Made by a program: the position numbers and the translations under genes. Source: Nanobdellota archaeon (GTDB lineage: Archaea; Nanobdellota; Nanobdellia; Pacearchaeales; GW2011-AR1). Taken from it: a DNA stretch of 64,000 bases. Location: NCBI GenBank assembly GCA_038045265.1, contig JBBSYL010000010.1, positions 582 to 64,581 of the forward strand, given 5' to 3'. A model generated the notes under the pieces. It had not been told where the DNA came from. It saw nothing but the letters and a program-made list of their open reading frames with translations, and searched no databases. Positions 3,319 to 46,823 of this stretch are shown one piece after another; the stretch's first letter is position 1, and the number at the start of each line of letters is the position of its first letter.

Positions 3319-3546
3319 TTATCCATATCTGTCTTCGTAGAAACTTGTTGCACCATAACATGATAATCTTCCTAAAGCATCGTCTCTATCCACGCCATTC
3401 TCTCCTTCAAGGGATTTTCCTCCAAATCTTATATCGCTTGCTAATTTGTCTAATTTCTTTTTATCACCCTCTGCTAATAATCTCCTTACTTCTTCTGTAT
3501 CTACCATTATTTTCCTGCAGAACTTTAGTTTAAAAATCTTCCTCAC
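3319..3546 (-). CDS. small hypothetical protein
   Basis: 75-aa ORF between the discoidin-like genes and rps2, same strand. No family recognised. Confidence 0.3.
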   Translation of the reverse strand: MRKIFKLKFCRKIMVDTEEVRRLLAEGDKKKLDKLASDIRFGGKSLEGENGVDRDDALGRLSCYGATSFYEDRYG

Positions 3547-4505
3547 CCATAACTAAACCCTGCAATCTTAAATTCAACTTCCGCGAGGTTGCCGTAATCA
3601 CGCACTCCAGATGTTTGTACAAATCTGACATATCTGGCTACTGCGATTTCTGGAAGCTTTTGTGTGATTATTCTTGGATATGTTACTTGAAAGTCTTTCA
3701 TTAGTGTGTCCCAGTCTTTTCTATTGTTGGATATTTCGATGTCCATGATTAATGGGACATCGAACTTACTGAAATACATGTCAAGAGATTTTATGCATTT
3801 CTGATTTCCTAGATCGAATTCAATCCATCTCGGATATGATTCATCTGCGTCTCCAAACCAATTACTTGAAAGGTTTTTATCAATTGCGTTTCTTGCAGGG
3901 AAATCTAAATCCTGGGAACTTGCTGTTGCAGAAATTGGAGATTCGAGAGAATAATCTCCGCATGAAACTGCAAGATTAGACATACCCGCTATTCCTCCTG
4001 ACTTTTCATTTTCTGAGACTCCTGCAAAGAAAGGAGTTCCAGGAGGAGTCGTTGTGCCTCCACCGCCTCCCGAAGGAGAAGTACATACTCCTTCAGAACA
4101 TGAGTATTCACAGGAGAATTCATCTTTTATGCTTACATTATTATTACAGTAATATTCATATAAGATTTTGTCTGTAAAGCAGGAGTCTGTGAAGTTAAGT
4201 TTTGTTCCTGTAGCAAATGTCTGGACTACTTTTCCTTTTGCGAAGTAATTTTTGCCTGAGTCTGAATCTACACATGAAGCAGTATAAGTTTTCTTGGTTT
4301 CATTTTTACTAGTTTCGTTTTTACTTGTGCTATTTACTGGGGGCTCTATTGGAGGTTCATCTCCACCATCCCCATATCCGTAACCGAGATTTTGAAAATT
4401 GAGGGAGACATGTCCGGTTGGTTTTGAAAGTGTTACTTGCAGTATTATAGCTACTATAAGAATAGCAACTAGCAGAAGAATTGTATAAATTTCTCTTTTA
4501 TTCAT
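3543..4505 (-). CDS. secreted/anchored discoidin (F5/8 type C)-like domain protein, paralog B
   Basis: N-terminal TM/signal. Cys-rich module CVDSDSGKNYF...CEYSCSEGVC. C-terminal domain with SNWFGDADESYPRWIEFDLG resembling discoidin/F5-8C. Paralog of the upstream ORF. Confidence 0.55.
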   Translation of the reverse strand: MNKREIYTILLLVAILIVAIILQVTLSKPTGHVSLNFQNLGYGYGDGGDEPPIEPPVNSTSKNETSKNETKKTYTASCVDSDSGKNYFAKGKVVQTFATGTKLNFTDSCFTDKILYEYYCNNNVSIKDEFSCEYSCSEGVCTSPSGGGGGTTTPPGTPFFAGVSENEKSGGIAGMSNLAVSCGDYSLESPISATASSQDLDFPARNAIDKNLSSNWFGDADESYPRWIEFDLGNQKCIKSLDMYFSKFDVPLIMDIEISNNRKDWDTLMKDFQVTYPRIITQKLPEIAVARYVRFVQTSGVRDYGNLAEVEFKIAGFSYG

Positions 4506-5352
4506 TTATTATTCCCTCCGGAAAGTCCGCAATATTTAACCTAATTTCTGCAAGAGTTCCAAATTCTCTCTTACCCGAAGTTTCGTAAAGTCTTATATAT
4601 CTTGCTAGAACAGTATCGGGCAATTCTACTCCTATTGTAGTAATATTCTCAAGCACTAGATCTTTCTGAAGGGTCTTCCATCTCACATTATCATTTGAAA
4701 CCTGCAAATCCAGACTTAATGGAAGATCTCTTTTGAATACATATAGATCTGCTTCCCTTATACATTTTCTCTCTCCTAAATCGAAGGCAATCCATTTAGG
4801 ATAGGATTCTGATAACTCTCCAAACCAGTGAGTGTTTGCATCAAAGTCTAAAGTATCTAATGCTGAAAAGTTTCCATAATCGCTAGAAGCAAAAGCATTT
4901 TTTGGAGTGGAAAATTTGTATTCTCCGCAGAATAGGGCTAAATCCTTTGCAATTAAAACTGAAATTTCCTCTTCTTGTGTTAAACAAATACCTTCAAAAC
5001 ATCCAAATTCACAATTTATCTGATTGGCAATGGAATTTTTGTCTTCACAGGAGTATTCCTGCAATCTTCCTGAGTCAAGACAGCTATCTGAAAAGAATTC
5101 AGTCTTGCCTGAATTATATATTATTTTAACATTCCCTTGGGAAAAATAATCTTTTCCTGAATCTGAATCTGTGCAAGATTTAGGAGAATCTTCTCCTTTT
5201 GATATTATTCTGCTACCGTTAAGGTAAATCCCTAGAACTATCAACAGAATAACTATCGCAGAGAGTGTGTAAATAAATGTTTTTTTAAATCTTTTAAAGT
5301 TTAATGGGCTTTTTCTCTCACTTTTCTTTACTGCATGAACCCTCTTTTTCAT
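4498..5352 (-). CDS. secreted/anchored discoidin (F5/8 type C)-like domain protein, paralog A
   Basis: Same architecture as 3543-4505 (CTDSDSGKDYF...; HWFGELSESYPKWIAFDLG). 8-bp overlap with the paralog. Confidence 0.55.
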   Translation of the reverse strand: MKKRVHAVKKSERKSPLNFKRFKKTFIYTLSAIVILLIVLGIYLNGSRIISKGEDSPKSCTDSDSGKDYFSQGNVKIIYNSGKTEFFSDSCLDSGRLQEYSCEDKNSIANQINCEFGCFEGICLTQEEEISVLIAKDLALFCGEYKFSTPKNAFASSDYGNFSALDTLDFDANTHWFGELSESYPKWIAFDLGERKCIREADLYVFKRDLPLSLDLQVSNDNVRWKTLQKDLVLENITTIGVELPDTVLARYIRLYETSGKREFGTLAEIRLNIADFPEGIINE

Positions 5353-29014: not shown

Positions 29015-31219
29015 TTACCTACCGAAGAAATACTTAAGGAATGAATTAGGAGAGGGGTCTGAATCATATATTACATTTCCGAGTATGAATGAGCCCGTTA
29101 CTGGTGCTGACTCTCCTCCGCTAGTTCCACTTGTTGTTCCTGAGGATGAACCTGAACTTGTTGAACTTGAATCTCCAGAAGTTGTTCCTGAAGTTGATTG
29201 CTGAGAAGAATCTGCTGGAGGAGATTGCTGAGGAGGTTGTTGCTGTTGCTGTTCTTGAGGTGGTTGTTGATTTTGTTGAGTGTTGAAAGGAACACATCCT
29301 GAACCGCTCCATTGTTGTCCTTCAGGACAGCTTGAACCATCAGGGTTAAAACCTCCCTCTCCTTTCTGGCATCCTCCCCAAGGATCGCAATAATTTGGAG
29401 AAGGACCACAGTTTAATTTAGAACAGTCATATTTTGCAGTTCTATCTACATAATCTTTATCTCCAGGTCCTGGAGGACGATTGTATTCTTCTTTAGATTC
29501 TCCAAAGCATTTATTTCTGGCTTCATCATAGGACAATCCTTTAGTTCTTGCTTCATCTAAGCATCCATTGCCTGTTGACTTGGAAGTGTCTCTAAATCCT
29601 TCTGGACCTCTTGGTTGCCTGAAATCGTCCCTATATTCTCTTCTTTCACCTTCTCTGCATGTACATTGGCCTCCAGTAAAGTCCCACGCTACATTTTTCT
29701 CTTGACATGAGTTTGCACACTCTCTTTCTTTTTCTTTTGTTTCTCTAAACCTTTTTTCATCAAATCCTCTGCCTTCTCCATCTGGGCCTTCTCTGAAACT
29801 TGAGACGGCACCATCAAAACACTTTAATCTTTCATCTGAATCTTGTATCTGCCTGCAATCAAAGTTAAATCCTCCTCTTTGGCCTCTGCCTTCTCCATCT
29901 GGGCCTTCTCTGTCTCTGCCTAACTCATCCATTATCTTTTGGCACTTTCTTCCATCAGATGGAGATTCTCCTGTAAGCCCTGCGTCTATGCATTCTTGAG
30001 GTGCACTACTTTCAAACTCATGTCTTCCACAATCTTTAAAGTTTGTAATTCCTGCGTCTATGCATTCTTGAGGAGCTTTTATTTTGTACATTTCTCCTTC
30101 GCATTTTTCTCTTAATTCTCTCTCGCTTGTTATTCCCTTGTCTATTGCGTCTAGTAATACCTTTCTGCATTCTGGAGGAGGTCCGTCATCATCTTCGCTT
30201 CCTTCAGATATCACTAACTTCATGCATTCTATCCTTGATGTAACCTTTCTTTCTCTGCAAATTTTAGGTGCATGATTATCATATTGAGCTCCTTCAAAAT
30301 CATCTTCTATATCAGCCAAAGCTTCTTGAAGATAATCTGGAAGAACATCTTCAATGCCTTCGCTTAACTTATCGGCCTCTTCACACTTTGCTTCATCCCC
30401 TTTCTGGCATTGAGCATATAATGGGGCGACTTCAGTGCATTTGTCAGCAAATGCTTCAACACTTATATCTTGGCATTTACAATTGGTTGCATCTTTCATG
30501 CATTGAGTCATTATTCCTATAAATGCCTTAACTTCTTTTTTCTGCTCTTCTGTCAATTTTCTGTCGAGCTTTTTCTGCCAATCAGGAGAATCGTCGTCTG
30601 ATTTGCATGTTCTTGAATATTGGTCAGGGTCAAGCTTTGAAAGAGTTTCACACAATTCTTTTATTTTCCCTGCAATTTCTGCCGCAGTTCCTATCTTCTT
30701 TTCTGCTACTCTTATCTTGTTGAAATCATCTCTATATTCTGGAGGAATATCATTTATTATATCACCATATGCTTTTCTTATAACTTTTGAACGCCTTTCT
30801 GCTTCATCTTTATCCTCTGGTTTTACTTCTTTTTCAAATTTCTCAGCAGATTGTTCATATTCTGCAAGAAGCGCTTTTGCCTCTTCGTATTTTCCTTCAC
30901 TTAATAAAGTCCTTATTTCCGCCGCTCTTTCTCGGCTATATCCTTCATCATCTTTGAATATCCCGTCTACAAATCTGTCAAATTCATTTACGCTTCCTCC
31001 AGTACCTAATTCATCCCTGACTTCTTCTTCAGTTATATCTGATAAATCAGAATCCTCTTCCTCCGAAACAGCATCTTGGCTTGAAGCGTCCTGAATTTCA
31101 TCGGAAATTTCTTCAGAAGAAACAGACGTATCTGTTGAATCTTCAGCATAAACAAATGAGATGGACAATGCTAATAACATAAAAGTCAAAAACATAAAAC
31201 GCAAGCCTCTTCTTTGCAT
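29015..31219 (-). CDS. secreted acidic Cys-rich repeat protein with Q/P-rich and S/T/G-rich C-terminal linker
   Basis: Signal peptide (MQRRGLRFMFLTFMLLALSISFVYA). Internal duplicated modules (REGPDGEGRG x2, APQECIDAG[IL]T x2) are also visible as nucleotide repeats. Poly-Q/P and STG tail. Confidence 0.6.
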   Translation of the reverse strand: MQRRGLRFMFLTFMLLALSISFVYAEDSTDTSVSSEEISDEIQDASSQDAVSEEEDSDLSDITEEEVRDELGTGGSVNEFDRFVDGIFKDDEGYSRERAAEIRTLLSEGKYEEAKALLAEYEQSAEKFEKEVKPEDKDEAERRSKVIRKAYGDIINDIPPEYRDDFNKIRVAEKKIGTAAEIAGKIKELCETLSKLDPDQYSRTCKSDDDSPDWQKKLDRKLTEEQKKEVKAFIGIMTQCMKDATNCKCQDISVEAFADKCTEVAPLYAQCQKGDEAKCEEADKLSEGIEDVLPDYLQEALADIEDDFEGAQYDNHAPKICRERKVTSRIECMKLVISEGSEDDDGPPPECRKVLLDAIDKGITSERELREKCEGEMYKIKAPQECIDAGITNFKDCGRHEFESSAPQECIDAGLTGESPSDGRKCQKIMDELGRDREGPDGEGRGQRGGFNFDCRQIQDSDERLKCFDGAVSSFREGPDGEGRGFDEKRFRETKEKERECANSCQEKNVAWDFTGGQCTCREGERREYRDDFRQPRGPEGFRDTSKSTGNGCLDEARTKGLSYDEARNKCFGESKEEYNRPPGPGDKDYVDRTAKYDCSKLNCGPSPNYCDPWGGCQKGEGGFNPDGSSCPEGQQWSGSGCVPFNTQQNQQPPQEQQQQQPPQQSPPADSSQQSTSGTTSGDSSSTSSGSSSGTTSGTSGGESAPVTGSFILGNVIYDSDPSPNSFLKYFFGR

Positions 31220-31804: not shown

Positions 31805-32098
31805 TTATATTCTGGCAATAGTTAATGACTTTATGGATTGCTGATACTCTCGTTCTAATTGAGGATTTCCTTCCAAAAATTGGAAATATTCTTTAGTAGC
31901 TAATCTTGCTTCAACTGAATGCTTTTTTGCTTTTTTTATTTTACCGTATAAACGATTGGCTTCTTGAATTAGGGGAGTTCTTGATTGACTTTTTGCTTTC
32001 TCAAAATCAACTAAATTACTTCCAAGCCAAACTATGCCTGCCAAAGTGACAGCTGTACAAAAGTTTACAGGTCTCAAATATTGAGATATGTTTTTCAT
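31805..32098 (-). CDS. hypothetical small membrane protein
   Basis: 97-aa ORF with N-terminal TM, immediately downstream of pcna. Confidence 0.3.
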   Translation of the reverse strand: MKNISQYLRPVNFCTAVTLAGIVWLGSNLVDFEKAKSQSRTPLIQEANRLYGKIKKAKKHSVEARLATKEYFQFLEGNPQLEREYQQSIKSLTIARI

Positions 32099-32100
32099 TT

Positions 32101-32829
32101 TTAATCTTCCTGCTCTATTCTTGGGGCGAGGACGAATGAAAGCATAACATTTCCTGTTGGGAAGTCAAGACGCATAGGGTGGTTGTCTGAGAAGGAAATA
32201 GACACCCTAGAAGAAATTTTTGAGCCCTTTCTGAACTTATTAAGATATTCTAAGGAGAATCTAGCTTTGCTTGTGGCAGAGAATATCTCTGCTTCATCGC
32301 TTGAAAACTCTGCCTTCGCGGAGTTTAGACCAGAAGCTTCCACTATAAATTTAGTTGGTTCTGCTATAAATGTACAGGCATCTGAAACTACAAGGCAATC
32401 ATCTATAACTTCAGAGAAGGTTTCTGCATCCATCCTTATGACTGATTTGAATTCCCATTCTGGTAGATCTTTTTCTTCTGAATCTAGATCTAGAAGAGCA
32501 AGAGTAAAGTCTCTCTTTATTCTATCTTGGATTTCAAGTCTTAAGATATTATCATTTTTAATAAGTAAAAGTGCGCTTCCGGGCTTACATCTTCTTAAAA
32601 CTGCCTTTAAATTCTCAAGATTTATTCCTAAAATCTCATTTTTTTCAAGTTCAAAAATTGAAAATAGGTCTGATGGTATGCGAAAATAGACCATGGCCAC
32701 ATTTGCTGGATCTATAGCAGTAAGCATTAAACCGTCTTTATTGACCTTAAGCTTAACTTCAGTAACCAATTCAGATATTATGCCTACTATATCCGAAAAT
32801 AACTTAGGATTATCGAGTTTCAACCTCAT
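32101..32829 (-). CDS. pcn: DNA polymerase sliding clamp PCNA
   Basis: 242 aa. PCNA two-domain pattern (MRLKLDNPKLFSDIVGIISELV...). Confidence 0.9.
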   Translation of the reverse strand: MRLKLDNPKLFSDIVGIISELVTEVKLKVNKDGLMLTAIDPANVAMVYFRIPSDLFSIFELEKNEILGINLENLKAVLRRCKPGSALLLIKNDNILRLEIQDRIKRDFTLALLDLDSEEKDLPEWEFKSVIRMDAETFSEVIDDCLVVSDACTFIAEPTKFIVEASGLNSAKAEFSSDEAEIFSATSKARFSLEYLNKFRKGSKISSRVSISFSDNHPMRLDFPTGNVMLSFVLAPRIEQED

Positions 32830-32972
32830 GTTTGTTGAGATAATTAAGAGCTTTTAAGTTTTGTTGTGATTCATGATATAAAGAACCGAATACAAGAATC
32901 TGTTATTTCATTTATTTGTATCATTAATAAGGAATAAGCAAATCCTATAAAGCATAGGTTGCTGAGAAATCT

Positions 32973-34511
32973 ATGGTGAAGGAAGAAAGAATTAGGGCAA
33001 TTACTAAACTATATTATTCAAACCCTAAAGTGCAGGAGGCATTGCTTAAGTTCTCAAAAGATAGAGAAGTTGTTCCAAGATATTTTGAAGGGTTTGGGAA
33101 AAGACCAGATTCATTGCAATATAATTCAGATATAATGGGATTGGTCAATAAAGGGGCTACAAGTTTTCATGCATCGGAAGAATTGTGGGAAGATGTACTT
33201 GCAATAAATTCCGACATGACTCAAGCGGAATTTAATTTGCTTAGAAAATCATGGGACCTACTTATAGATATAGACTCTTCATTTCTTGATTGTTCCAAGA
33301 TAGCAACAGACTTAATAATAAAAGCGCTAGAGCATTTTGGGATAAAAAATTATGGAATAAAATTCTCTGGGAGCAAAGGATTCCATATAATCGTCGCTGG
33401 AAAAGCTTTTCCTGAAGAGTATAATGGGATGAAGATGAGTGAAATGTTCCCTGAATGGCCTCGAGCTATTTCAGAATATCTTATGTATTATATTAGGAGA
33501 GATTATAATATAGAAGTAGGAAAAATATTAAGCAATACTGATATTGTGGCCAGAACCGGCAATAAAGAAAAAGAAGAAAATATAATATGTAAGAAATGTG
33601 GAAGAAAAGCTCTGCGAGGAGTGGTAGCAAATTTACACTGTCCAATATGCGGATTCCAGATAAACAGAAGAGACGCAAAAACAAGCAAAAGAAAGTTGAA
33701 GTGCATTAATGCTAGATGCGCAGGAATACTTGAAAGTGGGGATGAAAAAGATTACTGGTATTGTGAATATTGCAAGCAGGATGAAGAAAGCAAAGCAAAT
33801 CTAAATTCAGAAAAAAATCCTGAATATTTCGAAAAACTTAGGGGAGAAAATGCAGAGGCAATAGCTAAACTTGATCTTATACTTGTTGCGCCTAGGCATT
33901 TGTTTAGGATGCCTTATTCTCTTCATGAAAAGACATCTCTCGCAAGCGTCGTATTAAAGAAAGAAGAAATAAAAGATTTTGAACCAAAAGACGCAGATCC
34001 TTTAAAAATCAAAATAAGAGATTATCTTCCTGAAAACGAAAAAGACGAAGCAAAAAAATTACTCTCTGCGGCGTTAGAATGGAAGAAGGGCAGGGAGCAG
34101 CAGGAAGAAGAACAAGTTAAAAAGAAGTATTTCAGCGAGACCAATTTTGAGGTGGGAAATATAGATGAAAAAGATTTCCCTAAACCGATAAAAAAACTAC
34201 TTAATGGCATAGGTGACGGCAAAAAAAGAGGATTGTTTATACTCCTTACTTTTCTTAAAAGTATAAATTATTCTCCTGAAAAGATAAATCAGCTAGTCAG
34301 AGAATGGAATAAGAAAAATGAACAACCATTAAAAGAAGGATATTTGAAAAGCCAGATAGAGTGGCATTTGAGACAGAAAAAGAAAATACTCCCTCCCAAT
34401 TATGATAATCCCTCGTTCTATAAAGATCTGGGATTGCTTGATGAAAAACCAAACGTGAAGAATCCGTTAGTTGATGCTATTAGAAAGGCGAGGAGGAAAC
34501 ATATTTCTTGA
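32973..34511 (+). CDS. priS: DNA primase catalytic subunit PriS with Zn-finger insert and C-terminal helical extension (possible PriS-PriL-CTD-like fusion)
   Basis: AEP motifs LIDIDS and FSGSKGFHII (SGxRGxH). Cys clusters CKKCGRK...CPICG, CINARC, CEYCK. 512 aa is much longer than typical PriS. Confidence 0.8.
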   Translation: MVKEERIRAITKLYYSNPKVQEALLKFSKDREVVPRYFEGFGKRPDSLQYNSDIMGLVNKGATSFHASEELWEDVLAINSDMTQAEFNLLRKSWDLLIDIDSSFLDCSKIATDLIIKALEHFGIKNYGIKFSGSKGFHIIVAGKAFPEEYNGMKMSEMFPEWPRAISEYLMYYIRRDYNIEVGKILSNTDIVARTGNKEKEENIICKKCGRKALRGVVANLHCPICGFQINRRDAKTSKRKLKCINARCAGILESGDEKDYWYCEYCKQDEESKANLNSEKNPEYFEKLRGENAEAIAKLDLILVAPRHLFRMPYSLHEKTSLASVVLKKEEIKDFEPKDADPLKIKIRDYLPENEKDEAKKLLSAALEWKKGREQQEEEQVKKKYFSETNFEVGNIDEKDFPKPIKKLLNGIGDGKKRGLFILLTFLKSINYSPEKINQLVREWNKKNEQPLKEGYLKSQIEWHLRQKKKILPPNYDNPSFYKDLGLLDEKPNVKNPLVDAIRKARRKHIS

Positions 34512-34530: not shown

Positions 34531-36390
34531 ATGCGTGGCATTGGAATGAGAAAAGGGTTGATGTTGTTGGCTTTTGCTTTTGGTCTAATAGTTTTTAGCG
34601 GAATAGTTTTTGCTGCGGAAAACGACACTTCTGGAGAGAATATTGATAAGGCATATCAATGCCTTAAAGGAGAGATAGATAAAAGAACAAGTTTGAGTTT
34701 TCAGGAAGCTGTGTTTAGTACTCTTGCTCTTGGAAGTTATAAAGAAAATCTGAAAGTTATAGACAATGAAAAATACGGAAGCCAAAGTTGCTGGCCAAAA
34801 TCGGGGTGTAAGATTAAAGAAACAGGACAAGCATTACTAGCATTAGACCGTGCGGGAAGAAACACCGATCCAATTGAAAAATGGCTTCTTGGAAAGAATG
34901 GAACTGCGGATGATTTATCTTGGTTCCTTGAAATAGATATTAGAAATCAGCAAGTAGCTACATGTAGTATAAAATATAAGGGATTGACAGGAAATGTACA
35001 GATTGGTGCAGATTCCAAAATTTCTGGAAGCGCAGGCTCATGCCTTAGTATTTCTGATTCAGATTATCTTCTTAAGATAAGGGAGAGTTGCCTTGGAGAA
35101 GAGTTTGCAATTTCGTGTAATCAGGACTTTGTAACTACGCTGATTTATCAGAAGACAAGAGGAGATAATAAAGATTGCCTTGGAGAAAACAACATAACTT
35201 GTTTCGTTTCTGGAGAGACTCATGCAGCCTCTTCTTTAGGAACAACTGTTGAAAAGATAAAGGCTTCTTGCTTTAAGTCTGGAGGGAGATGCGATTATGA
35301 GGGAAGTTTATGGGCTGCCATTGCACTAGCAAAAACAGGGAATAATATTGACATATTTGCACCATATTTGCTTGCACTTGCCGAGGATTCGGGAAGATAT
35401 TTCCCAGAAGCATTCTTACTTTCCTTAATTGGGGATGATGATTCATTTGATTCTGTAATACAACAGAGAAAGCAAGGCCAATTTTGGGAAATTCAGGGAA
35501 GCCCATACAATAGATTTTACGATACCGCTTTAGGATTGCTTGGTCTCAACTCTAGGTCTGGAAGTACAGAAGTTGAGGCAACACAAAGTTATCTTCTTGG
35601 AATACAAACCAGGGAGGGATGTTGGAATAATAATAATATTAGAGATACTGCATTTTTACTTTATACTGGATGGCAGAAATCTTCTGGGGGTGGTGGAAGT
35701 GGAGGAAGTAGCGCATTATGTGAAGAAGCAGGATTTTCATGCGAAAGATTAAGCGAGTGCCAGGCGATTGGAGGAAGTACTAAAGAAAATTTTGAGTGCA
35801 CTGGAGTAGGAATATGCTGTTCACTAGAGGTTCCTAAGACAAGTTGTGAAGCAGAAGGAGGAGCGGTTTGTTCGGGAAATACAGAGTGCGATGGAAGAAC
35901 ATTCGAAGCAAGTAGTGGACAGGCTTGTTGTTTGGGGGCATGCATACCAACAGTAGTTGAGAATATATGTGAGGATAGTATTGGAGGAACGTGCAGATTT
36001 TCGTGTGAAGGGAAAGAGAGTGCGACGAGCGACAGTTGTGGATTAGATGCAGGAAGCATATGTTGTGTTAAGGAGAAAAGTAGTGGAGGTTCTGGAATGG
36101 TGTGGATAATCATTTTGATAATACTGATAATTATAATAGCACTCGCAATTTTGTACAGACATAAAATACAATTGTGGTGGCACTCAAGAAAGGGAGATTT
36201 CAAGAGCAGACCTGTTGTGAAGCCTGGAATACCTCCTGCAGGAACTTATAGGCCAATGCAAATGAGGCCAATGTTTGGAGCTAGACCTATGCAAGGTCAA
36301 CAACCTGCAAGAAGACCCGCGCCTGCAAGATCAGAAAGAGAAAGTGAATTAGATGATACCCTAAAGAAATTAAGAGATATGAGTAAGTAA
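34531..36390 (+). CDS. type I membrane surface protein with terpene-cyclase/prenyltransferase-like alpha/alpha-toroid repeats, Cys-rich stalk, TM anchor and proline-rich cytoplasmic tail
   Basis: Signal peptide. QW-like motifs (RKQGQFWEI, QTREGCWNN). Gly linker. CC-containing modules (CCSLE..., ACCLGACIP, SICCVKE). TM (VWIIILIILIIIIALAILY). Tail RPMQMRPMFGARPMQGQQPARRPAPAR. Confidence 0.55.
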   Translation: MRGIGMRKGLMLLAFAFGLIVFSGIVFAAENDTSGENIDKAYQCLKGEIDKRTSLSFQEAVFSTLALGSYKENLKVIDNEKYGSQSCWPKSGCKIKETGQALLALDRAGRNTDPIEKWLLGKNGTADDLSWFLEIDIRNQQVATCSIKYKGLTGNVQIGADSKISGSAGSCLSISDSDYLLKIRESCLGEEFAISCNQDFVTTLIYQKTRGDNKDCLGENNITCFVSGETHAASSLGTTVEKIKASCFKSGGRCDYEGSLWAAIALAKTGNNIDIFAPYLLALAEDSGRYFPEAFLLSLIGDDDSFDSVIQQRKQGQFWEIQGSPYNRFYDTALGLLGLNSRSGSTEVEATQSYLLGIQTREGCWNNNNIRDTAFLLYTGWQKSSGGGGSGGSSALCEEAGFSCERLSECQAIGGSTKENFECTGVGICCSLEVPKTSCEAEGGAVCSGNTECDGRTFEASSGQACCLGACIPTVVENICEDSIGGTCRFSCEGKESATSDSCGLDAGSICCVKEKSSGGSGMVWIIILIILIIIIALAILYRHKIQLWWHSRKGDFKSRPVVKPGIPPAGTYRPMQMRPMFGARPMQGQQPARRPAPARSERESELDDTLKKLRDMSK

Positions 36391-36431: not shown

Positions 36432-37622
36432 ATGAAAAAGATGAATCTAATTAAGATATTTGTTGCGTTTTTAGTCTTTATATCTCTATTTTCTATGAGC
36501 ATTAGTGCGCTTTCTTTAGATATGAAAGAAAGTTATCAACCTAGAGAAACTATGATTGTTGAAATAACTGGAAATATTTTGTCTCCAATAAATCTTGAAG
36601 ATATTGAGTTCAAGAGAAAAAATGTCATTGTTCCATTAAACTATGATGTTAAGGTTCTTGGAGAGAGGCATTTTATATGGGCTGTTGCGCCTTTGAATGA
36701 AAGCAATTACACTCTTGTGCTTAAAAAAGTGGATACAACTGTAAATGGAGTAAGAGAAGAGACAAGTTATGAAAAGAACTTTAGCATATACGGAAATATA
36801 ACTTCCTATAGTGTAACTCCTGGCTTTATCTTAACTAATAAAGAGAATTTTACTGTAGAAGTTTTCCTGTATGAAGATGAAAAAAAGGTTGTTAGTATAG
36901 ACTTTCCGGAAGTTCATGAAGTGACTTTAAGACCTGGAAAGAATGAACTTAAATTTAAAGTCGACTCTGTTTTCGGAAGCGTTTTCAGAGAGATACATCT
37001 TGGGTATTATACACTTCCTGCGTACATATCGGGAACAGCAAGGAATAAATATGAAGCGCAAGACAAACATCTTGCATTTGAGCCTGCAACTTTTTACAAA
37101 GAAATTGAGATTGACAGAACAGTTGAATATACCATTATCATAAGGAATAGATATAATGAAACAATAGAAGATATTTCCTTGAATTATAATGAAGATTTAT
37201 TTACAATTACTGAAGATTCAAGATTTGCTTTGGATCCTGGAGAAAGCAGAGAATTTATTGTTAAAACGAATGATCCTGTGAAAGAAGACTTAAGAGAATT
37301 CATATATGCAAGATCTGACGATATAGAAATTACAATGCCTATTGAGATATTGATAAAAAGAATAGATGAACAGACTGGAGAGAACTTGCTTTACTGCGAG
37401 GAAATCCCTGGAATGATTTGTACAGAAAGTGAAGAATGTGTGGGGGAGAGCGAAAATTCCATACAGGGTGCTTGTTGTTTGGGAATATGTGAGAAAAAAG
37501 AAACAGAAAGCGGAAGCAAGGGATTAATTGGGTGGTTTCTCGCAGGTATAATTATTATAGGTCTGGTTGTCATGTTTTTCAAGTATAGGAAATCAAATGC
37601 ACCAATAGAAGAAAAGAAGTAA
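36432..37622 (+). CDS. type I membrane surface protein with juxtamembrane Cys motif
   Basis: Signal peptide. Motif GACCLGICE shared with the upstream protein (QACCLGACIP). C-terminal TM. Confidence 0.5.
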   Translation: MKKMNLIKIFVAFLVFISLFSMSISALSLDMKESYQPRETMIVEITGNILSPINLEDIEFKRKNVIVPLNYDVKVLGERHFIWAVAPLNESNYTLVLKKVDTTVNGVREETSYEKNFSIYGNITSYSVTPGFILTNKENFTVEVFLYEDEKKVVSIDFPEVHEVTLRPGKNELKFKVDSVFGSVFREIHLGYYTLPAYISGTARNKYEAQDKHLAFEPATFYKEIEIDRTVEYTIIIRNRYNETIEDISLNYNEDLFTITEDSRFALDPGESREFIVKTNDPVKEDLREFIYARSDDIEITMPIEILIKRIDEQTGENLLYCEEIPGMICTESEECVGESENSIQGACCLGICEKKETESGSKGLIGWFLAGIIIIGLVVMFFKYRKSNAPIEEKK

Positions 37623-42944: not shown

Positions 42945-44471
42945 ATGGACCTTGTCATAAATCTCAAACCTCCCATACCTGCTCTTCCAAGAGTAACAGA
43001 CAAAAGTAAGGTAGATATTAGATATGTTTTGATTGCCCCCTACGCTGTAGCCCATATATATTGGGATGAAAAAACTTCTGAATTAGTTTATGAACTTGAA
43101 GAGCCCTTGCTTAACGAGCCAGAAAAGGCTATACTTGACAAGATTGAAGAAGGAATGCTCGAACTCATAAATGTTAATGTGGCTGTTGAGAAGACTTTAG
43201 AAGCAACAACAAATTATATAGACAAAACTGCAAGGCTTTTGATTGACGAATTTAATATAAAAATGTCTGAAGAGGGCTATCAAAAAATATTTTATTATCT
43301 TTACAGAGATTTTATTGGCTTAAATGAGATAGAACCCATCCTTAATGATTATTATATAGAAGATATAGAATGTAATGGTGTTGGAACAAGTGTGTATGTT
43401 ATACACAGAATATATAGGAATCTAAGAACAAATATACTTTATTCTGATGTAGATAAACTCGCAAATTTTGTTGAGAAGCTTGCGCAAAGGACTGGAAGAT
43501 ATATTTCCTATGCCCAGCCCCTACTAGATGGCAGTCTACCAGATGGAAGTAGAGTCAATGCAAGTTACACAAAAGATGTTACCTCTAAAGGTCCAACTTT
43601 TACAATACGTAAATTTACAAAAGTTCCTTGGACACCAATACAACTTATTGGACTTGGAACTGTGAGTCCCGAGATGCTTGCTTATTTCTGGATACTTCTC
43701 GAATACAAGTCTAGTTTTATGATAACTGGAGGTACTGGAACTGGTAAGACAACATTGCTTAATGCACTTGCCTTCTTCATTCCTCCCGAAGCGAGAGTTG
43801 TTAGTATTGAAGACACAAGAGAAATAAATTTGCCAAGAGAAAACTGGCTTCCAGCAGTTGCAAGACCAAGCATCGGAATAGGAAATGTTGGTGAAGTAGA
43901 TCTTTTCTCCCTATTGAAAAGCTCATTCAGACAGAATCCGGACTATTTAATAGTGGGAGAAGTAAGAGGAAAAGAAGCTTATGTCTTATTCCAAGGAATG
44001 GCTTCTGGTCATGCCTCTTTGAGTACAATGCACGCCGATTCTGTAGAGACATTGATAAGAAGGTTACAAACACCTCCGATAGAACTTCCGCCGAGCCTTG
44101 TTAACACATTAGACTGTGTTGCAGTAATAAGTCATGGATTGGTTAATAATAGGGATATAAGAAAAGTCAGAGAGATTGTTGAAATTATAAATGTAAATAA
44201 TGACGGTACAGCGATGGTTAATACTCCAATGGTTTGGGATCCAGCAAAAAATGTATTTTACTTCAAAAAGCAAAGCAAAGTCTTTGAGAAAATTGCATTA
44301 AAGCATGGAGTAGCACTTGAAAAAATAAGGAGGGAACTTCTTGCAAGAAGTAAACTCCTTTATGAATTATATAGGAATAAAATATTTGATTTTTATGAAG
44401 TAGGAAAAATAATCAATGAGTATTATAAAAATCCTGCAGAGGTCCTTACAAAATACGATATAAAAGAGTAA
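42945..44471 (+). CDS. type IV pilus/secretion ATPase (FlaI/ArlI/TadA/PilB family)
   Basis: Walker A GGTGTGKTTLLNAL. Walker B DYLIVGEVRGKEA. His box GHASLSTMHAD. Confidence 0.85.
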   Translation: MDLVINLKPPIPALPRVTDKSKVDIRYVLIAPYAVAHIYWDEKTSELVYELEEPLLNEPEKAILDKIEEGMLELINVNVAVEKTLEATTNYIDKTARLLIDEFNIKMSEEGYQKIFYYLYRDFIGLNEIEPILNDYYIEDIECNGVGTSVYVIHRIYRNLRTNILYSDVDKLANFVEKLAQRTGRYISYAQPLLDGSLPDGSRVNASYTKDVTSKGPTFTIRKFTKVPWTPIQLIGLGTVSPEMLAYFWILLEYKSSFMITGGTGTGKTTLLNALAFFIPPEARVVSIEDTREINLPRENWLPAVARPSIGIGNVGEVDLFSLLKSSFRQNPDYLIVGEVRGKEAYVLFQGMASGHASLSTMHADSVETLIRRLQTPPIELPPSLVNTLDCVAVISHGLVNNRDIRKVREIVEIINVNNDGTAMVNTPMVWDPAKNVFYFKKQSKVFEKIALKHGVALEKIRRELLARSKLLYELYRNKIFDFYEVGKIINEYYKNPAEVLTKYDIKE

Positions 44472-44513
44472 GGTCTATGAAAACTATATAAATATGGTGT
44501 CTAATTTATATTA

Positions 44514-44675
44514 ATGGAAAAAGAGGATGTAATATCGCTTGCTCACCTCCTGTCTGCTATGAAAGATTCTGCTATAAAGCTTGAAGAAGCGGTGAAAAAG
44601 AAAGATGCTGAAAAAATTACTGAAATAAAAAGAGAAATACTCAGATTTCAAAAAGACGTAGAGAGGGTTATATGA
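44514..44675 (+). CDS. small 53-aa helical protein translationally coupled (ATGA) to the platform gene
   Basis: Hand-translated as MEKEDVISLAHLLSAMKDSAIKLEEAVKKKDAEKITEIKREILRFQKDVERVI. Below the ORF-track size cutoff. Confidence 0.3.
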   Translation: MEKEDVISLAHLLSAMKDSAIKLEEAVKKKDAEKITEIKREILRFQKDVERVI

Positions 44676-45967
44676 TAGAGGAACTTTTGAAAAATATAGA
44701 TAATGAAATAGACATACTTAAGGAAATAGCCTTGTATAATAATAAATTATCTGAAGCGAATCAGCGAGAGAGAAAAATACTTCTTGCGGCAATAAGCTCC
44801 TTGAGAGAAGGAATAAGAATATTAAATGCTTCCGTTCCGAAAATAATGCAGGGTATATCTTTGGCTAAGAAATTGCCTGGAAAACACGAAAGCGGTTTGG
44901 AAAGAATATCTTTTAAGAGAAATGAAAAGGGAATGGATGCTGTCTTAAGAAGCGAAGATAAAGAAAGATTCTTATCTGAACTAAGAATAAATAACGAGGC
45001 GCTGGAAAAGTTGGGGGGAGAAAAACAAGAACAAGAAGTATCTTATGCCAAATTCAAAGGTTCAAACTTTTATCTTAAAGCATCAAATAGAATGTTTGTC
45101 GGACTTGCCAGAAACATGATAAAGCGGGGAAAATTCAAAACACTTGCTACGACCCTTAAAAAATCAAATTTAGACATTTTATTTGAAAGCTATGTTTCTG
45201 CAATTTTCTTTACAACTTTTCTTGCTGTATGCTTTTCGGCCGTACTCTATGTCCTTCTTATATTCTTAGACTTCAGTGTGAGCGCGCCATTTATTCAAAT
45301 ATATTCTGATACACATTTGAAAAGAGTAGGAAGCTTAATATGGGTGCCTTTGATCATTCCAATTCTTTTCTTTCTAGGTTCTTATTTCTACCCTTCAACT
45401 GAGAGGGGGAGTATAGAAAGAAGAATAGATCAAGAGCTCCCATTTGCTGTCGTCCATATGAGCGCAATATCCGGCTCCGGGATAGAACCAACCAGCATCT
45501 TTAAGATAATTGTTCTTGGAAAAGAATATCCTTATCTTAAGAAAGAAGTAAGAAAAATCCTTAATCAAATAAATCTTTATGGTTATGACCTGGTTACCGC
45601 ACTTAACAATGTTGCCAAAAATTCACCAAGCAAGAAACTGTCTGAGTTGCTTTCTGGGATGGCTTCTACAATAACTTCTGGGGGGAGCCTATCTAATTTC
45701 TTTGAAAAAAGAGCTGAAACATTATTGCTTAATTATAGACTCGAAAGAGAAAAATTCACCAAATCTGCTGAAACTTTCATGGACCTCTATATAACTGTGG
45801 TAATCGTAGCGCCCATGATCCTCCTACTTATTTTCATACTTCTCTCGATAAGCGAGTTTGGGCCAAGTATCTCTCCAGGATATATTGCATTTATGATAAT
45901 TGCTATAATCACTTTAATCAATATTATATTCCTTGGAATAATTCATATTAAACAACCTGCATACTAA
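44672..45967 (+). CDS. pilus assembly platform protein (TadC/FlaJ/T2SS-F-like), part 1
   Basis: Cytoplasmic N-domain followed by multiple TM helices. Adjacent to the ATPase. Confidence 0.65.
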   Translation: MIEELLKNIDNEIDILKEIALYNNKLSEANQRERKILLAAISSLREGIRILNASVPKIMQGISLAKKLPGKHESGLERISFKRNEKGMDAVLRSEDKERFLSELRINNEALEKLGGEKQEQEVSYAKFKGSNFYLKASNRMFVGLARNMIKRGKFKTLATTLKKSNLDILFESYVSAIFFTTFLAVCFSAVLYVLLIFLDFSVSAPFIQIYSDTHLKRVGSLIWVPLIIPILFFLGSYFYPSTERGSIERRIDQELPFAVVHMSAISGSGIEPTSIFKIIVLGKEYPYLKKEVRKILNQINLYGYDLVTALNNVAKNSPSKKLSELLSGMASTITSGGSLSNFFEKRAETLLLNYRLEREKFTKSAETFMDLYITVVIVAPMILLLIFILLSISEFGPSISPGYIAFMIIAIITLINIIFLGIIHIKQPAY

Positions 45968-45968
45968 A

Positions 45969-46823
45969 ATGAAAATAAAAAAAGTTCACTGGATAGGAAT
46001 TGGATTCGGCTTAATACTCATAGTCGCAGGTTTAATCTTTTTTCTTAGTAATGAAGAAAAAAACTTGCTATTCTTTATAATCGGATTGGGAATAACTGTA
46101 GGAATACTTCCATTTATTGTGGATGTAATTGTTCAAAACAAGAAAGCGCAGGAGATAAATGAAATGTTTCTTGAATTTTCTAGAAATCTCGCTGAAAGTG
46201 TTGCAACAGGGACACCTATAAGTAAGAGCATAATTAATTTGAGTAGAAGGAATTATGGCCCTCTAACAGAACACATAGAAAAGTTGGGCAATCAAATTTC
46301 ACTTGGAATTCCTCTAAGTAAAGCTTTATTTATTTTTGCAAGAGATGTAGATAATAATGTTATAAGTAGAGCAGTCTCCCTTATGAGTGAAGCAGAAAAG
46401 GCAGGCGGAGAGATTGCCGCGATATTAAATTCTGTTTCTCTATCTATAGCCGAGATAGAAAAGTTGAAGAGTGAAAGAAAAGCAGCCATATCTGGCCTAA
46501 TAGTTCAAGGATATATAATATTCTTTATATTTATTGGCATAATGCTTATAATGGAATTTAAAATTTTGCCTTTAGCTTTGCAGATAGATACGTTGAGCGG
46601 ATTAAGCCATGGATCTGTAAGTGCTACCGCATCGCCAGGTCAAGGCAATGCAGGGGAATCACTGCCCAATCTGTTTCTCTATCTATTGCTTGTTCAGGGA
46701 TTCTTTACAGGATTTGCAATAGGGAAACTGGCCGAGGGTTCTTTAAAGGCGGGAATAAAGCATTCTTTCATAATGATCGTATCTGCTCTGCTTATTTCTA
46801 CGGGAGTCAGGGCATTTATTTAG
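45969..46823 (+). CDS. pilus assembly platform protein (TadB/FlaJ/T2SS-F-like), part 2
   Basis: N-terminal TM, soluble helical domain, C-terminal TMs. The platform appears split into two genes. Confidence 0.55.
   Translation: MKIKKVHWIGIGFGLILIVAGLIFFLSNEEKNLLFFIIGLGITVGILPFIVDVIVQNKKAQEINEMFLEFSRNLAESVATGTPISKSIINLSRRNYGPLTEHIEKLGNQISLGIPLSKALFIFARDVDNNVISRAVSLMSEAEKAGGEIAAILNSVSLSIAEIEKLKSERKAAISGLIVQGYIIFFIFIGIMLIMEFKILPLALQIDTLSGLSHGSVSATASPGQGNAGESLPNLFLYLLLVQGFFTGFAIGKLAEGSLKAGIKHSFIMIVSALLISTGVRAFI

Follow-up and report, generated by a model that had tools for sequence, protein, structure and literature searches.

The [4Fe-4S] cluster of the primase subunit PriL is described as strongly conserved in archaea and eukaryotes alike; opinions on its role divide between a structural one and that of a redox switch acting via DNA charge transport. 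Fusion of PriS and PriL was noted in Nanoarchaeum equitans by Iyer 2005 (as cited in PMC3914693), extended to the Nanohaloarchaea and Parvarchaeota (Raymann 2014, PMC3914693), identified as a synapomorphy of Undinarchaeota and DPANN cluster 2 (Dombrowski 2020, PMC7414124), and used as a marker for 'Nanostetteria', Pacearchaea included (bioRxiv 10.64898/2026.06.17.729505). The N. equitans monomeric primase, NEQ395 (393 aa), has been biochemically characterised (Schneider et al. 2023, PMC10250227). It ligates its [4Fe-4S] cluster via C289, C364, C376 and C384. Mutants in R301, R303 and F306 lose initiation while retaining extension, and the Cys mutants suggest that the cluster is dispensable for catalysis (PMC10250227). 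Here we analyse a gene for a 512-aa protein of this kind, located in a 64,000-nucleotide stretch of a Nanobdellota archaeon contig (JBBSYL010000010.1, positions 582 to 64,581; assembly GCA_038045265.1), to which we refer as the window.

We read this gene, with a probability of about 0.88, as encoding the cellular replicative primase of a Pacearchaeota-type DPANN archaeon, in which PriS, a long helix, a hinge and a homologue of the PriL C-terminal domain (PriL-CTD) are arranged in one polypeptide. The protein belongs to the DPANN monomeric primase family and fails the feature that ties this family to the cluster, the set of [4Fe-4S] ligands: it has no Cys after residue 267. The basis of this reading is homology, domain order, residue conservation, the absence of the ligands and synteny with PCNA, from which we infer the enzymatic activity, the metal content and the role of the ribbons described below. 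An earlier reading of the DNA, made without database searches (the sequence-only reading), had proposed that such a fusion would mark the lineage; this is right, and it was already published (PMC3914693, PMC7414124, bioRxiv 10.64898/2026.06.17.729505). The fused architecture itself is not new, being textbook for DPANN and confirming the lineage and nothing newer. The useful part is the Cys-free PriL-like domain, which, like the zinc-ribbon insert, we did not find in the searchable literature.

The open reading frame (ORF) proposed for the primase holds, with an ATG start and 512 codons, and it is no chance ORF, because the protein has more than 3383 homologs and its exact sequence is in NCBI (P0001, 'hypothetical protein AABW80_01370 [Nanoarchaeota archaeon]'). 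The best 120 homologs are all 495-569 aa long and 58-68% identical to it, and come from metagenome-assembled genomes of Pacearchaeota, Nanoarchaeota or unnamed archaea. In a scan of the GTDB species representatives, relatives were encoded in at least 577 genomes. Since the source record says just 'hypothetical protein', annotation pipelines miss the 512-aa protein, and the family is systematically under-annotated; relatives go by names as diverse as 'rubredoxin', 'DUF1610 Zn-ribbon protein' and 'primase C-terminal domain-containing protein'.

The N-terminal part of the protein is a PriS core of the archaeo-eukaryotic primase (AEP) superfamily. It matched Pfam DNA_primase_S (PF01896) with 30 bits, against a cut-off of 26.8, and the AEP signature hhhDhD / sxH / hD is present as LLIDID, SGSKGFH (H138) and LD301L. 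The motifs had been described as intact, and so they are: D99, D101, S132, K135, H138, D301, H309 and R312 do not vary across 63 homologs. The last two of these residues lie, together with H318, in the nucleotide-binding block RHLFRMPYSLHEKT, which aligns with the block NHLLKSPFSVHPKTG of eukaryotic Pri1. A profile search with the PriS part of the family matched eukaryotic Pri1 at E~3e-8. Foldseek comparison of the whole AlphaFold model, built from the 63-sequence alignment (mean pLDDT, the predicted local confidence score, 83.8), retrieved human Pri1, the PriS of Pyrococcus abyssi, P. furiosus and Sulfolobus solfataricus, Prim-PolC and LigD-pol, with E values from 3e-6 to 5e-4. For each catalytic residue that has been mutated in NEQ395, the 512-aa protein has an invariant equivalent at the corresponding spacing (Table 1), the assignment having been made by this spacing and not by pairwise alignment.

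What follows the core is, on sequence comparison, a PriL-CTD homologue. The helical character predicted for the C-terminal 150 aa or so was confirmed in the AlphaFold model, which places six helices between residues 361 and 511 (361-389, 404-410, 417-430, 435-447, 455-467 and 498-511). Residues 345-512 alone scored 23.7 bits on Pfam DNA_primase_lrg (PF04104; cut-off 22.4), and this profile was matched by 26 of 30 family members, the best at E=4e-7. Coverage is restricted to profile positions 57-171 of 266, the PriL N-terminal domain being absent. In hhalign, the C-terminal domain matched that of the four-Cys monomeric primases with a probability of 100% (E=2.8e-49). A profile of these four-Cys relatives in turn matched, over the Fe-S ligand motifs, the solved P. 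abyssi PriL (9f26_B; E=3.1e-9), and it was the only route to PriL: searches of the PDB sequences with the single sequence or with the family profile did not reach it. A structure comparison of the C-terminal region, which had been suggested as a check, gave PriX, a PriL-CTD paralogue, as the best Foldseek matches in the PDB, at a weak E~1. PriCT_1 was matched by two of the 30 members, with a best E of 0.018, and there was no significant match to PF08708 or PF08707. Taken with the linker helix, the Pfam and hhalign matches and the profile link to P. abyssi PriL support the earlier proposal of a PriL-CTD-like bundle appended to PriS as in Nanoarchaeota, as do, weakly, the PriX matches; that reading had overlooked the lack of the Fe-S ligands by which canonical PriL-CTD and NEQ395 are defined. 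Many representatives retrieved by HMMER consist of little beyond the PriL-like domain (P0121, 279 aa; P0123, 254 aa; P0126, 204 aa; P0127, 155 aa); these may be contig-end fragments or truly split primase genes, the latter having been reported for Nanosalina J07AB43.

The absence of the cluster ligands was analysed in a family set of 77 sequences, comprising 76 species-representative loci and the query. The C-terminal domain has no Cys in 50 of them, one in 12, two in one, four in 13 and five in one, so the four-ligand set is likewise missing in 62 of the 77 (0 or 1 Cys). In all 14 sequences with four or more Cys, the Cys align to P405, Y477, L489 and K492 of the query, with a ligand spacing of about 72/12/7-8, against 75/12/8 in NEQ395. 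Relatives at 43-48% identity to the query carry the four Cys at these positions, and the Cys align with the [4Fe-4S] ligands of the solved P. abyssi PriL. Position 477 is Y or F in the Cys-less group and position 489 is mostly L or I, which suggests, at the level of sequence, a hydrophobic replacement of the cluster at the ligand positions. The neighbouring basic motif is retained: no sequence departs from K418 or R419, only K or R occurs at 417, and 71 of the 77 have F422. Counted from ligand position 1, K417, R419 and F422 fall at +12, +14 and +17, the very offsets that separate R301, R303 and F306 of NEQ395 from C289.

An exhaustive HMMER search with the C-terminal profile returned 426 clusters at E<=1e-3, and among the best 150 of their 50%-identity representatives the full set of four ligands is present in about 91 and wholly absent from about 48. 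The query clade, represented by every sampled locus of at least 49% identity, is uniformly without ligands, and Cys-less C-terminal domains were also found in nine short primases that lack the insert. Since canonical PriL, NEQ395 and the plasmid primase PolpTN2 all have the four Cys, the ancestral state of the domain is cluster-bearing, the ligands having been lost in the query clade and, because Cys-less forms occur among the short, insert-less primases too, apparently more than once in the family. A midpoint-rooted neighbour-joining tree would give about 20 independent losses, an unreliable figure, and we limit the claim to more than one. In the open-access literature we found no statement of a large subgroup of monomeric primases without Fe-S ligands. 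One four-Cys monomeric primase (L066, on the 2-kb contig JAFCCB010000068.1) is binned as 'Candidatus Dojkabacteria bacterium', a bacterium of the candidate phyla radiation; this is most likely a mis-binned DPANN contig, and similar cases have been reported (bioRxiv 10.64898/2026.06.17.729505).

NEQ395 and the 512-aa protein share a one-chain layout in which a long linker helix connects the PriS core to the PriL-CTD; helix 361-389 and hinge 385-393 have their analogues in the linker helix (251-280) and the protease-sensitive hinge of NEQ395 (PMC10250227). They differ in length (393 versus 512 aa), in the residues at the ligand positions (C289/C364/C376/C384 versus P/Y/L/K) and in an insert of about 94 aa present only in the latter. 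By homology with NEQ395, D99, D101 and D301 would hold the catalytic metals, and H66, S132, K135, H138, H309 and R312 would bind the incoming nucleoside triphosphate. The C-terminal domain would swing onto the active site, where the helix with the conserved K417, R419 and F422 would hold the initiating nucleotide or the 5' end of the primer, allowing the first dinucleotide to form; afterwards the same domain would limit primer length. Because the four Cys ligands are replaced by P405, Y477, L489 and K492, the domain most likely folds around an aromatic and aliphatic core in place of a cluster. The 512-aa protein most likely works like NEQ395, without the cluster. This agrees with in-vitro evidence that catalysis does not need the cluster, from Sulfolobus PriSLX (Holzer 2017, cited in PMC10250227) and from the Cys mutants of NEQ395.

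The added length of the protein is mainly an insert in the PriS domain: motifs II and III are separated by 163 aa, compared with 69 in NEQ395, so that some 94 residues have been added. The three Cys clusters seen in the sequence-only reading resolve into four Cys pairs (C206/C209, C223/C226, C244/C249 and C264/C267) that make up two four-Cys units; a further Cys, C107, is not conserved. Each of the eight insert Cys is kept in 72-77 of the 77 sequences, and the AlphaFold model places them on beta-hairpins at 204-233 and 252-268. From these hairpins and from sub-threshold zinc-ribbon matches to L37e, DUF1610 and HVO_2753, the insert is predicted to form two zinc-ribbon-like units. The first of these, which is strongly basic, probably contacts template DNA. 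Shorter relatives of 420-450 aa are without the insert altogether. Monomeric primases of about 900-1000 aa also occur (P0135, 1019 aa; P0141, 960 aa; by length also P0158, P0177, P0197 and P0260), and in P0135 and P0141, the two that were checked, the length comes from an intein with a LAGLIDADG homing endonuclease in the PriS part. No description of a zinc-ribbon insert in a monomeric primase was found in the open-access literature.

Two sets of four conserved Cys, in a clade whose Cys-less C-terminal domain always co-occurs with another metal site, raise the question of whether the Fe-S cluster was not lost and instead moved to this insert, or to half of it. We consider this improbable, since at least 24 relatives combine this eight-Cys insert with a complete set of C-terminal ligands, and the nine short sequences with Cys-less C-terminal domains have no insert. 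Insert and C-terminal ligands therefore vary independently, and the insert is unlikely to be a relocated cluster site. The CxxC...CxxC arrangement on beta-hairpins, with its weak matches to L37e, DUF1610 and Zn_ribbon, is moreover typical of zinc ribbons.

The genomic setting is that of a cellular replication gene. As had been noticed, the primase diverges from PCNA, whose gene lies 143 bp away on the opposite strand; its product matched PCNA_N (E=1e-13) and PCNA_C (E=1e-11) of Pfam and the NCBIfam sliding clamp (E=2e-48). In 70 of the 72 primase loci for which sequence upstream is available, PCNA is found upstream on the opposite strand, the spacer having a median length of 143 bp, and by eye the spacer here has putative TATA-like elements about 25 nt upstream of both start codons. 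The window is an ordinary archaeal chromosome of about 35% G+C (0.347, against 0.348 for the primase gene), with a ribosomal-protein cluster, SecY, FttA/aCPSF1, the CCA-adding enzyme and a type-IV-pilus-like ATPase and platform set. The absence of an adjacent PriL gene, also claimed earlier, stands up: the PriL family gave no Pfam match in 20 of the 21 other window ORFs of at least 280 aa, 29015-31219 being left out, and a six-frame hidden Markov model scan of the window found no second primase and no second copy of the C-terminal domain. The fused protein would be the only primase of the genome. Inspection covered 64 kb of that genome and many archaea have extra AEP paralogues, so the protein might instead be an accessory or repair AEP, with a canonical Fe-S PriS/PriL pair encoded elsewhere doing the replicative priming. 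This is less probable still, because published surveys find the fused version in DPANN cluster 2 and canonical priS plus priL in cluster 1 (PMC7414124; bioRxiv 10.64898/2026.06.17.729505), the HMMER search retrieved only 426 clusters, of which the 150 listed resemble the fused-primase family or its fragments, and the gene is paired with PCNA. Least probable of all is that the C-terminal domain is a separately acquired PriCT- or PriX-type bundle, of the kind known from plasmid and viral primase-polymerases, and the gene a mobile-element primase, as the PriX and PriCT_1 matches, a weak PHROG primase match and a 2026 preprint proposing a mobile-element origin for the ancestral monomeric primase might suggest, given the continuous homology with four-Cys relatives whose ligand motifs align to P. 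abyssi PriL, the DNA_primase_lrg matches across the family, a gene that is single-copy in the window, PCNA-syntenic and like its surroundings in composition, and viral structures (BFVD) that give generic AEP matches, no closer than cellular primases.

A broader proposal is that chromosome replication in a whole Pacearchaeota-type DPANN clade, with hundreds of free-living or episymbiotic species, relies on a primase having no [4Fe-4S] cluster in its PriL-like domain. We judge the odds to be slightly in favour of this proposal, under which the ligand set would have been discarded as a unit, probably several times, while the initiation motif was strictly kept. The proposal, if true, would amount to in-vivo evidence from nature that cells can prime without the otherwise near-universal PriL cluster, and it would offer a cluster-free, oxygen-insensitive minimal model primase. 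Naturally cluster-free primases would be simpler to handle aerobically, and together with their cluster-bearing sisters at 43-48% identity they would form a matched pair for testing the contribution of the cluster in vivo and in vitro. In addition, the double zinc-ribbon insert is a candidate module for template recognition, in a family of primases with known sequence-specific priming.

Table 1. Features of the primase locus, with positions in the window, and the NEQ395 residues that correspond by spacing.
Feature	Position (nt)	Strand	Basis	NEQ395 counterpart
PCNA sliding clamp, 242 aa, divergent neighbour	32101..32829	-	Pfam, NCBIfam, synteny	
Divergent primase/PCNA spacer, 143 bp, 73% A+T	32830..32972	none	sequence	
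Monomeric PriS-PriL(CTD) primase gene, complete	32973..34511	+	ATG start, 512 aa plus stop	
PriS/AEP core, N-terminal part, residues 1-186, including H66	32973..33530	+	Pfam, invariant residues	H58 (H66)
Motif I LLIDID (D99, D101)	33258-33275	+	invariant in alignment	D87/D89 (D99/D101)
Motif II SGSKGFH (S132, K135, H138)	33366-33386	+	invariant in alignment	S119, K122, H125 (S132, K135, H138)
Lineage-specific insert between motifs II and III, residues 187-296	33531..33860	+	Cys conservation, model, spacing	
Predicted ribbon 1, C206/C209/C223/C226, net charge +10	about 33582-33671	+		
Predicted ribbon 2, C244/C249/C264/C267	about 33696-33782	+		
PriS core, C-terminal part, residues 297-345: motif III D301 and nucleotide-binding block RHLFRMPYSLHEKT	33861..34007	+	invariant	D194, H202, R205 (D301, H309, R312; same spacing)
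Long linker helix, residues 361-389; low-confidence hinge 385-393 follows	34053..34139	+	AlphaFold model, pLDDT <50 at 385-393	
PriL-CTD-like helical domain, residues 396-512, no Cys	34158..34508	+	Pfam, hhalign, alignment with four-Cys relatives	
Former Fe-S ligand positions	P405 34185-34187; Y477 34401-34403; L489 34437-34439; K492 34446-34448	+		
Putative initiation motif K417-K418-R419-G-L-F422	34221-34238	+	family conservation	

The GC skew of the window also raised the possibility of a replication origin. Its cumulative curve drops to a sharp, V-shaped minimum at the PCNA/primase spacer, with the turning point of the region 14000-58000 at about 32000-33000. Nearly all genes lie on the minus strand from 14 to 32 kb and on the plus strand from 33 to 57 kb, and the AT skew changes sign together with gene orientation. 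Because the AT skew flips alongside the GC skew, the turning point looks like a coding-strand effect. An origin in the spacer was rejected on these grounds and in view of its 143 bp and of repeats at chance level; the spacer contains no ORB-like (origin recognition box) repeats, and no orc1/cdc6 was seen among the scanned window ORFs.

Several other genes of the window deserve mention. Directly downstream of the primase, 34531-36390 (+) and 36432-37622 (+) encode two large predicted secreted or membrane-anchored proteins without Pfam match. In both, a Cys-rich stretch at the end contains a common 'ACCLG(A/I)C' motif and leads into a hydrophobic helix and a basic tail; the first additionally has repeated C-x-C-rich modules. 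On the other side of PCNA, 29015-31219 (-) encodes a secreted-looking protein of 734 aa. Besides many Cys, it has acidic repeats of low complexity at the N terminus, 'APQECIDAG(I/L)T' and 'REGPDGEGRG' as repeat units, and a tail rich in Q, P, S and T. At 3543-5352 (-), adjoining the ribosomal protein S2 gene, are tandem paralogues of 320 and 284 aa, both of which carry an F5/8 type C (discoidin, carbohydrate-binding) domain at the C terminus. Finally, at 42945-46823 (+) the gene for a T2SSE-type ATPase precedes those for two T2SSF-type membrane proteins; together they form an assembly cluster like that of an archaeal type-IV pilus or archaellum.

Among the known systems, the fused primases of DPANN cluster 2 and Undinarchaeota represent the same gene family in the same taxonomic setting as the 512-aa protein. 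Canonical PriL, in contrast, is a separate subunit of about 390 aa with an N-terminal PriS-binding domain and four Cys ligands, neither of which the 512-aa protein has. The relationship to it can still be followed in the ligand motifs, where FPPC(I/V)K..LKG of P. abyssi PriL (9f26_B) corresponds to FPKPIKKLLNG, and PPNCD...C.PD..CK..RNP corresponds to LPPNYDN...GLLDEKPNVKNP. PolpTN2, encoded by the Thermococcus nautilus plasmid pTN2, resembles the 512-aa protein in having PriS and PriL fused in one chain, but it is plasmid-encoded, is about 920 aa long, has the PriL N-terminal domain and keeps the four Cys (PMC3973330). PolpTN2 is reported to lack sequence similarity to the DPANN fusions, which points to an independent origin. 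PriX of S. solfataricus (4wyh, 5of3) is likewise a PriL-CTD-like bundle that has no Fe-S cluster and takes part in primer initiation. It forms a third subunit of its own beside a cluster-bearing PriL, whereas the 512-aa protein has its cluster-less domain fused to PriS, apparently as its sole PriL-like module. The continuity of this domain in sequence with the four-Cys relatives shows that it arose by loss of the ligands in situ and not by acquisition of a PriX.
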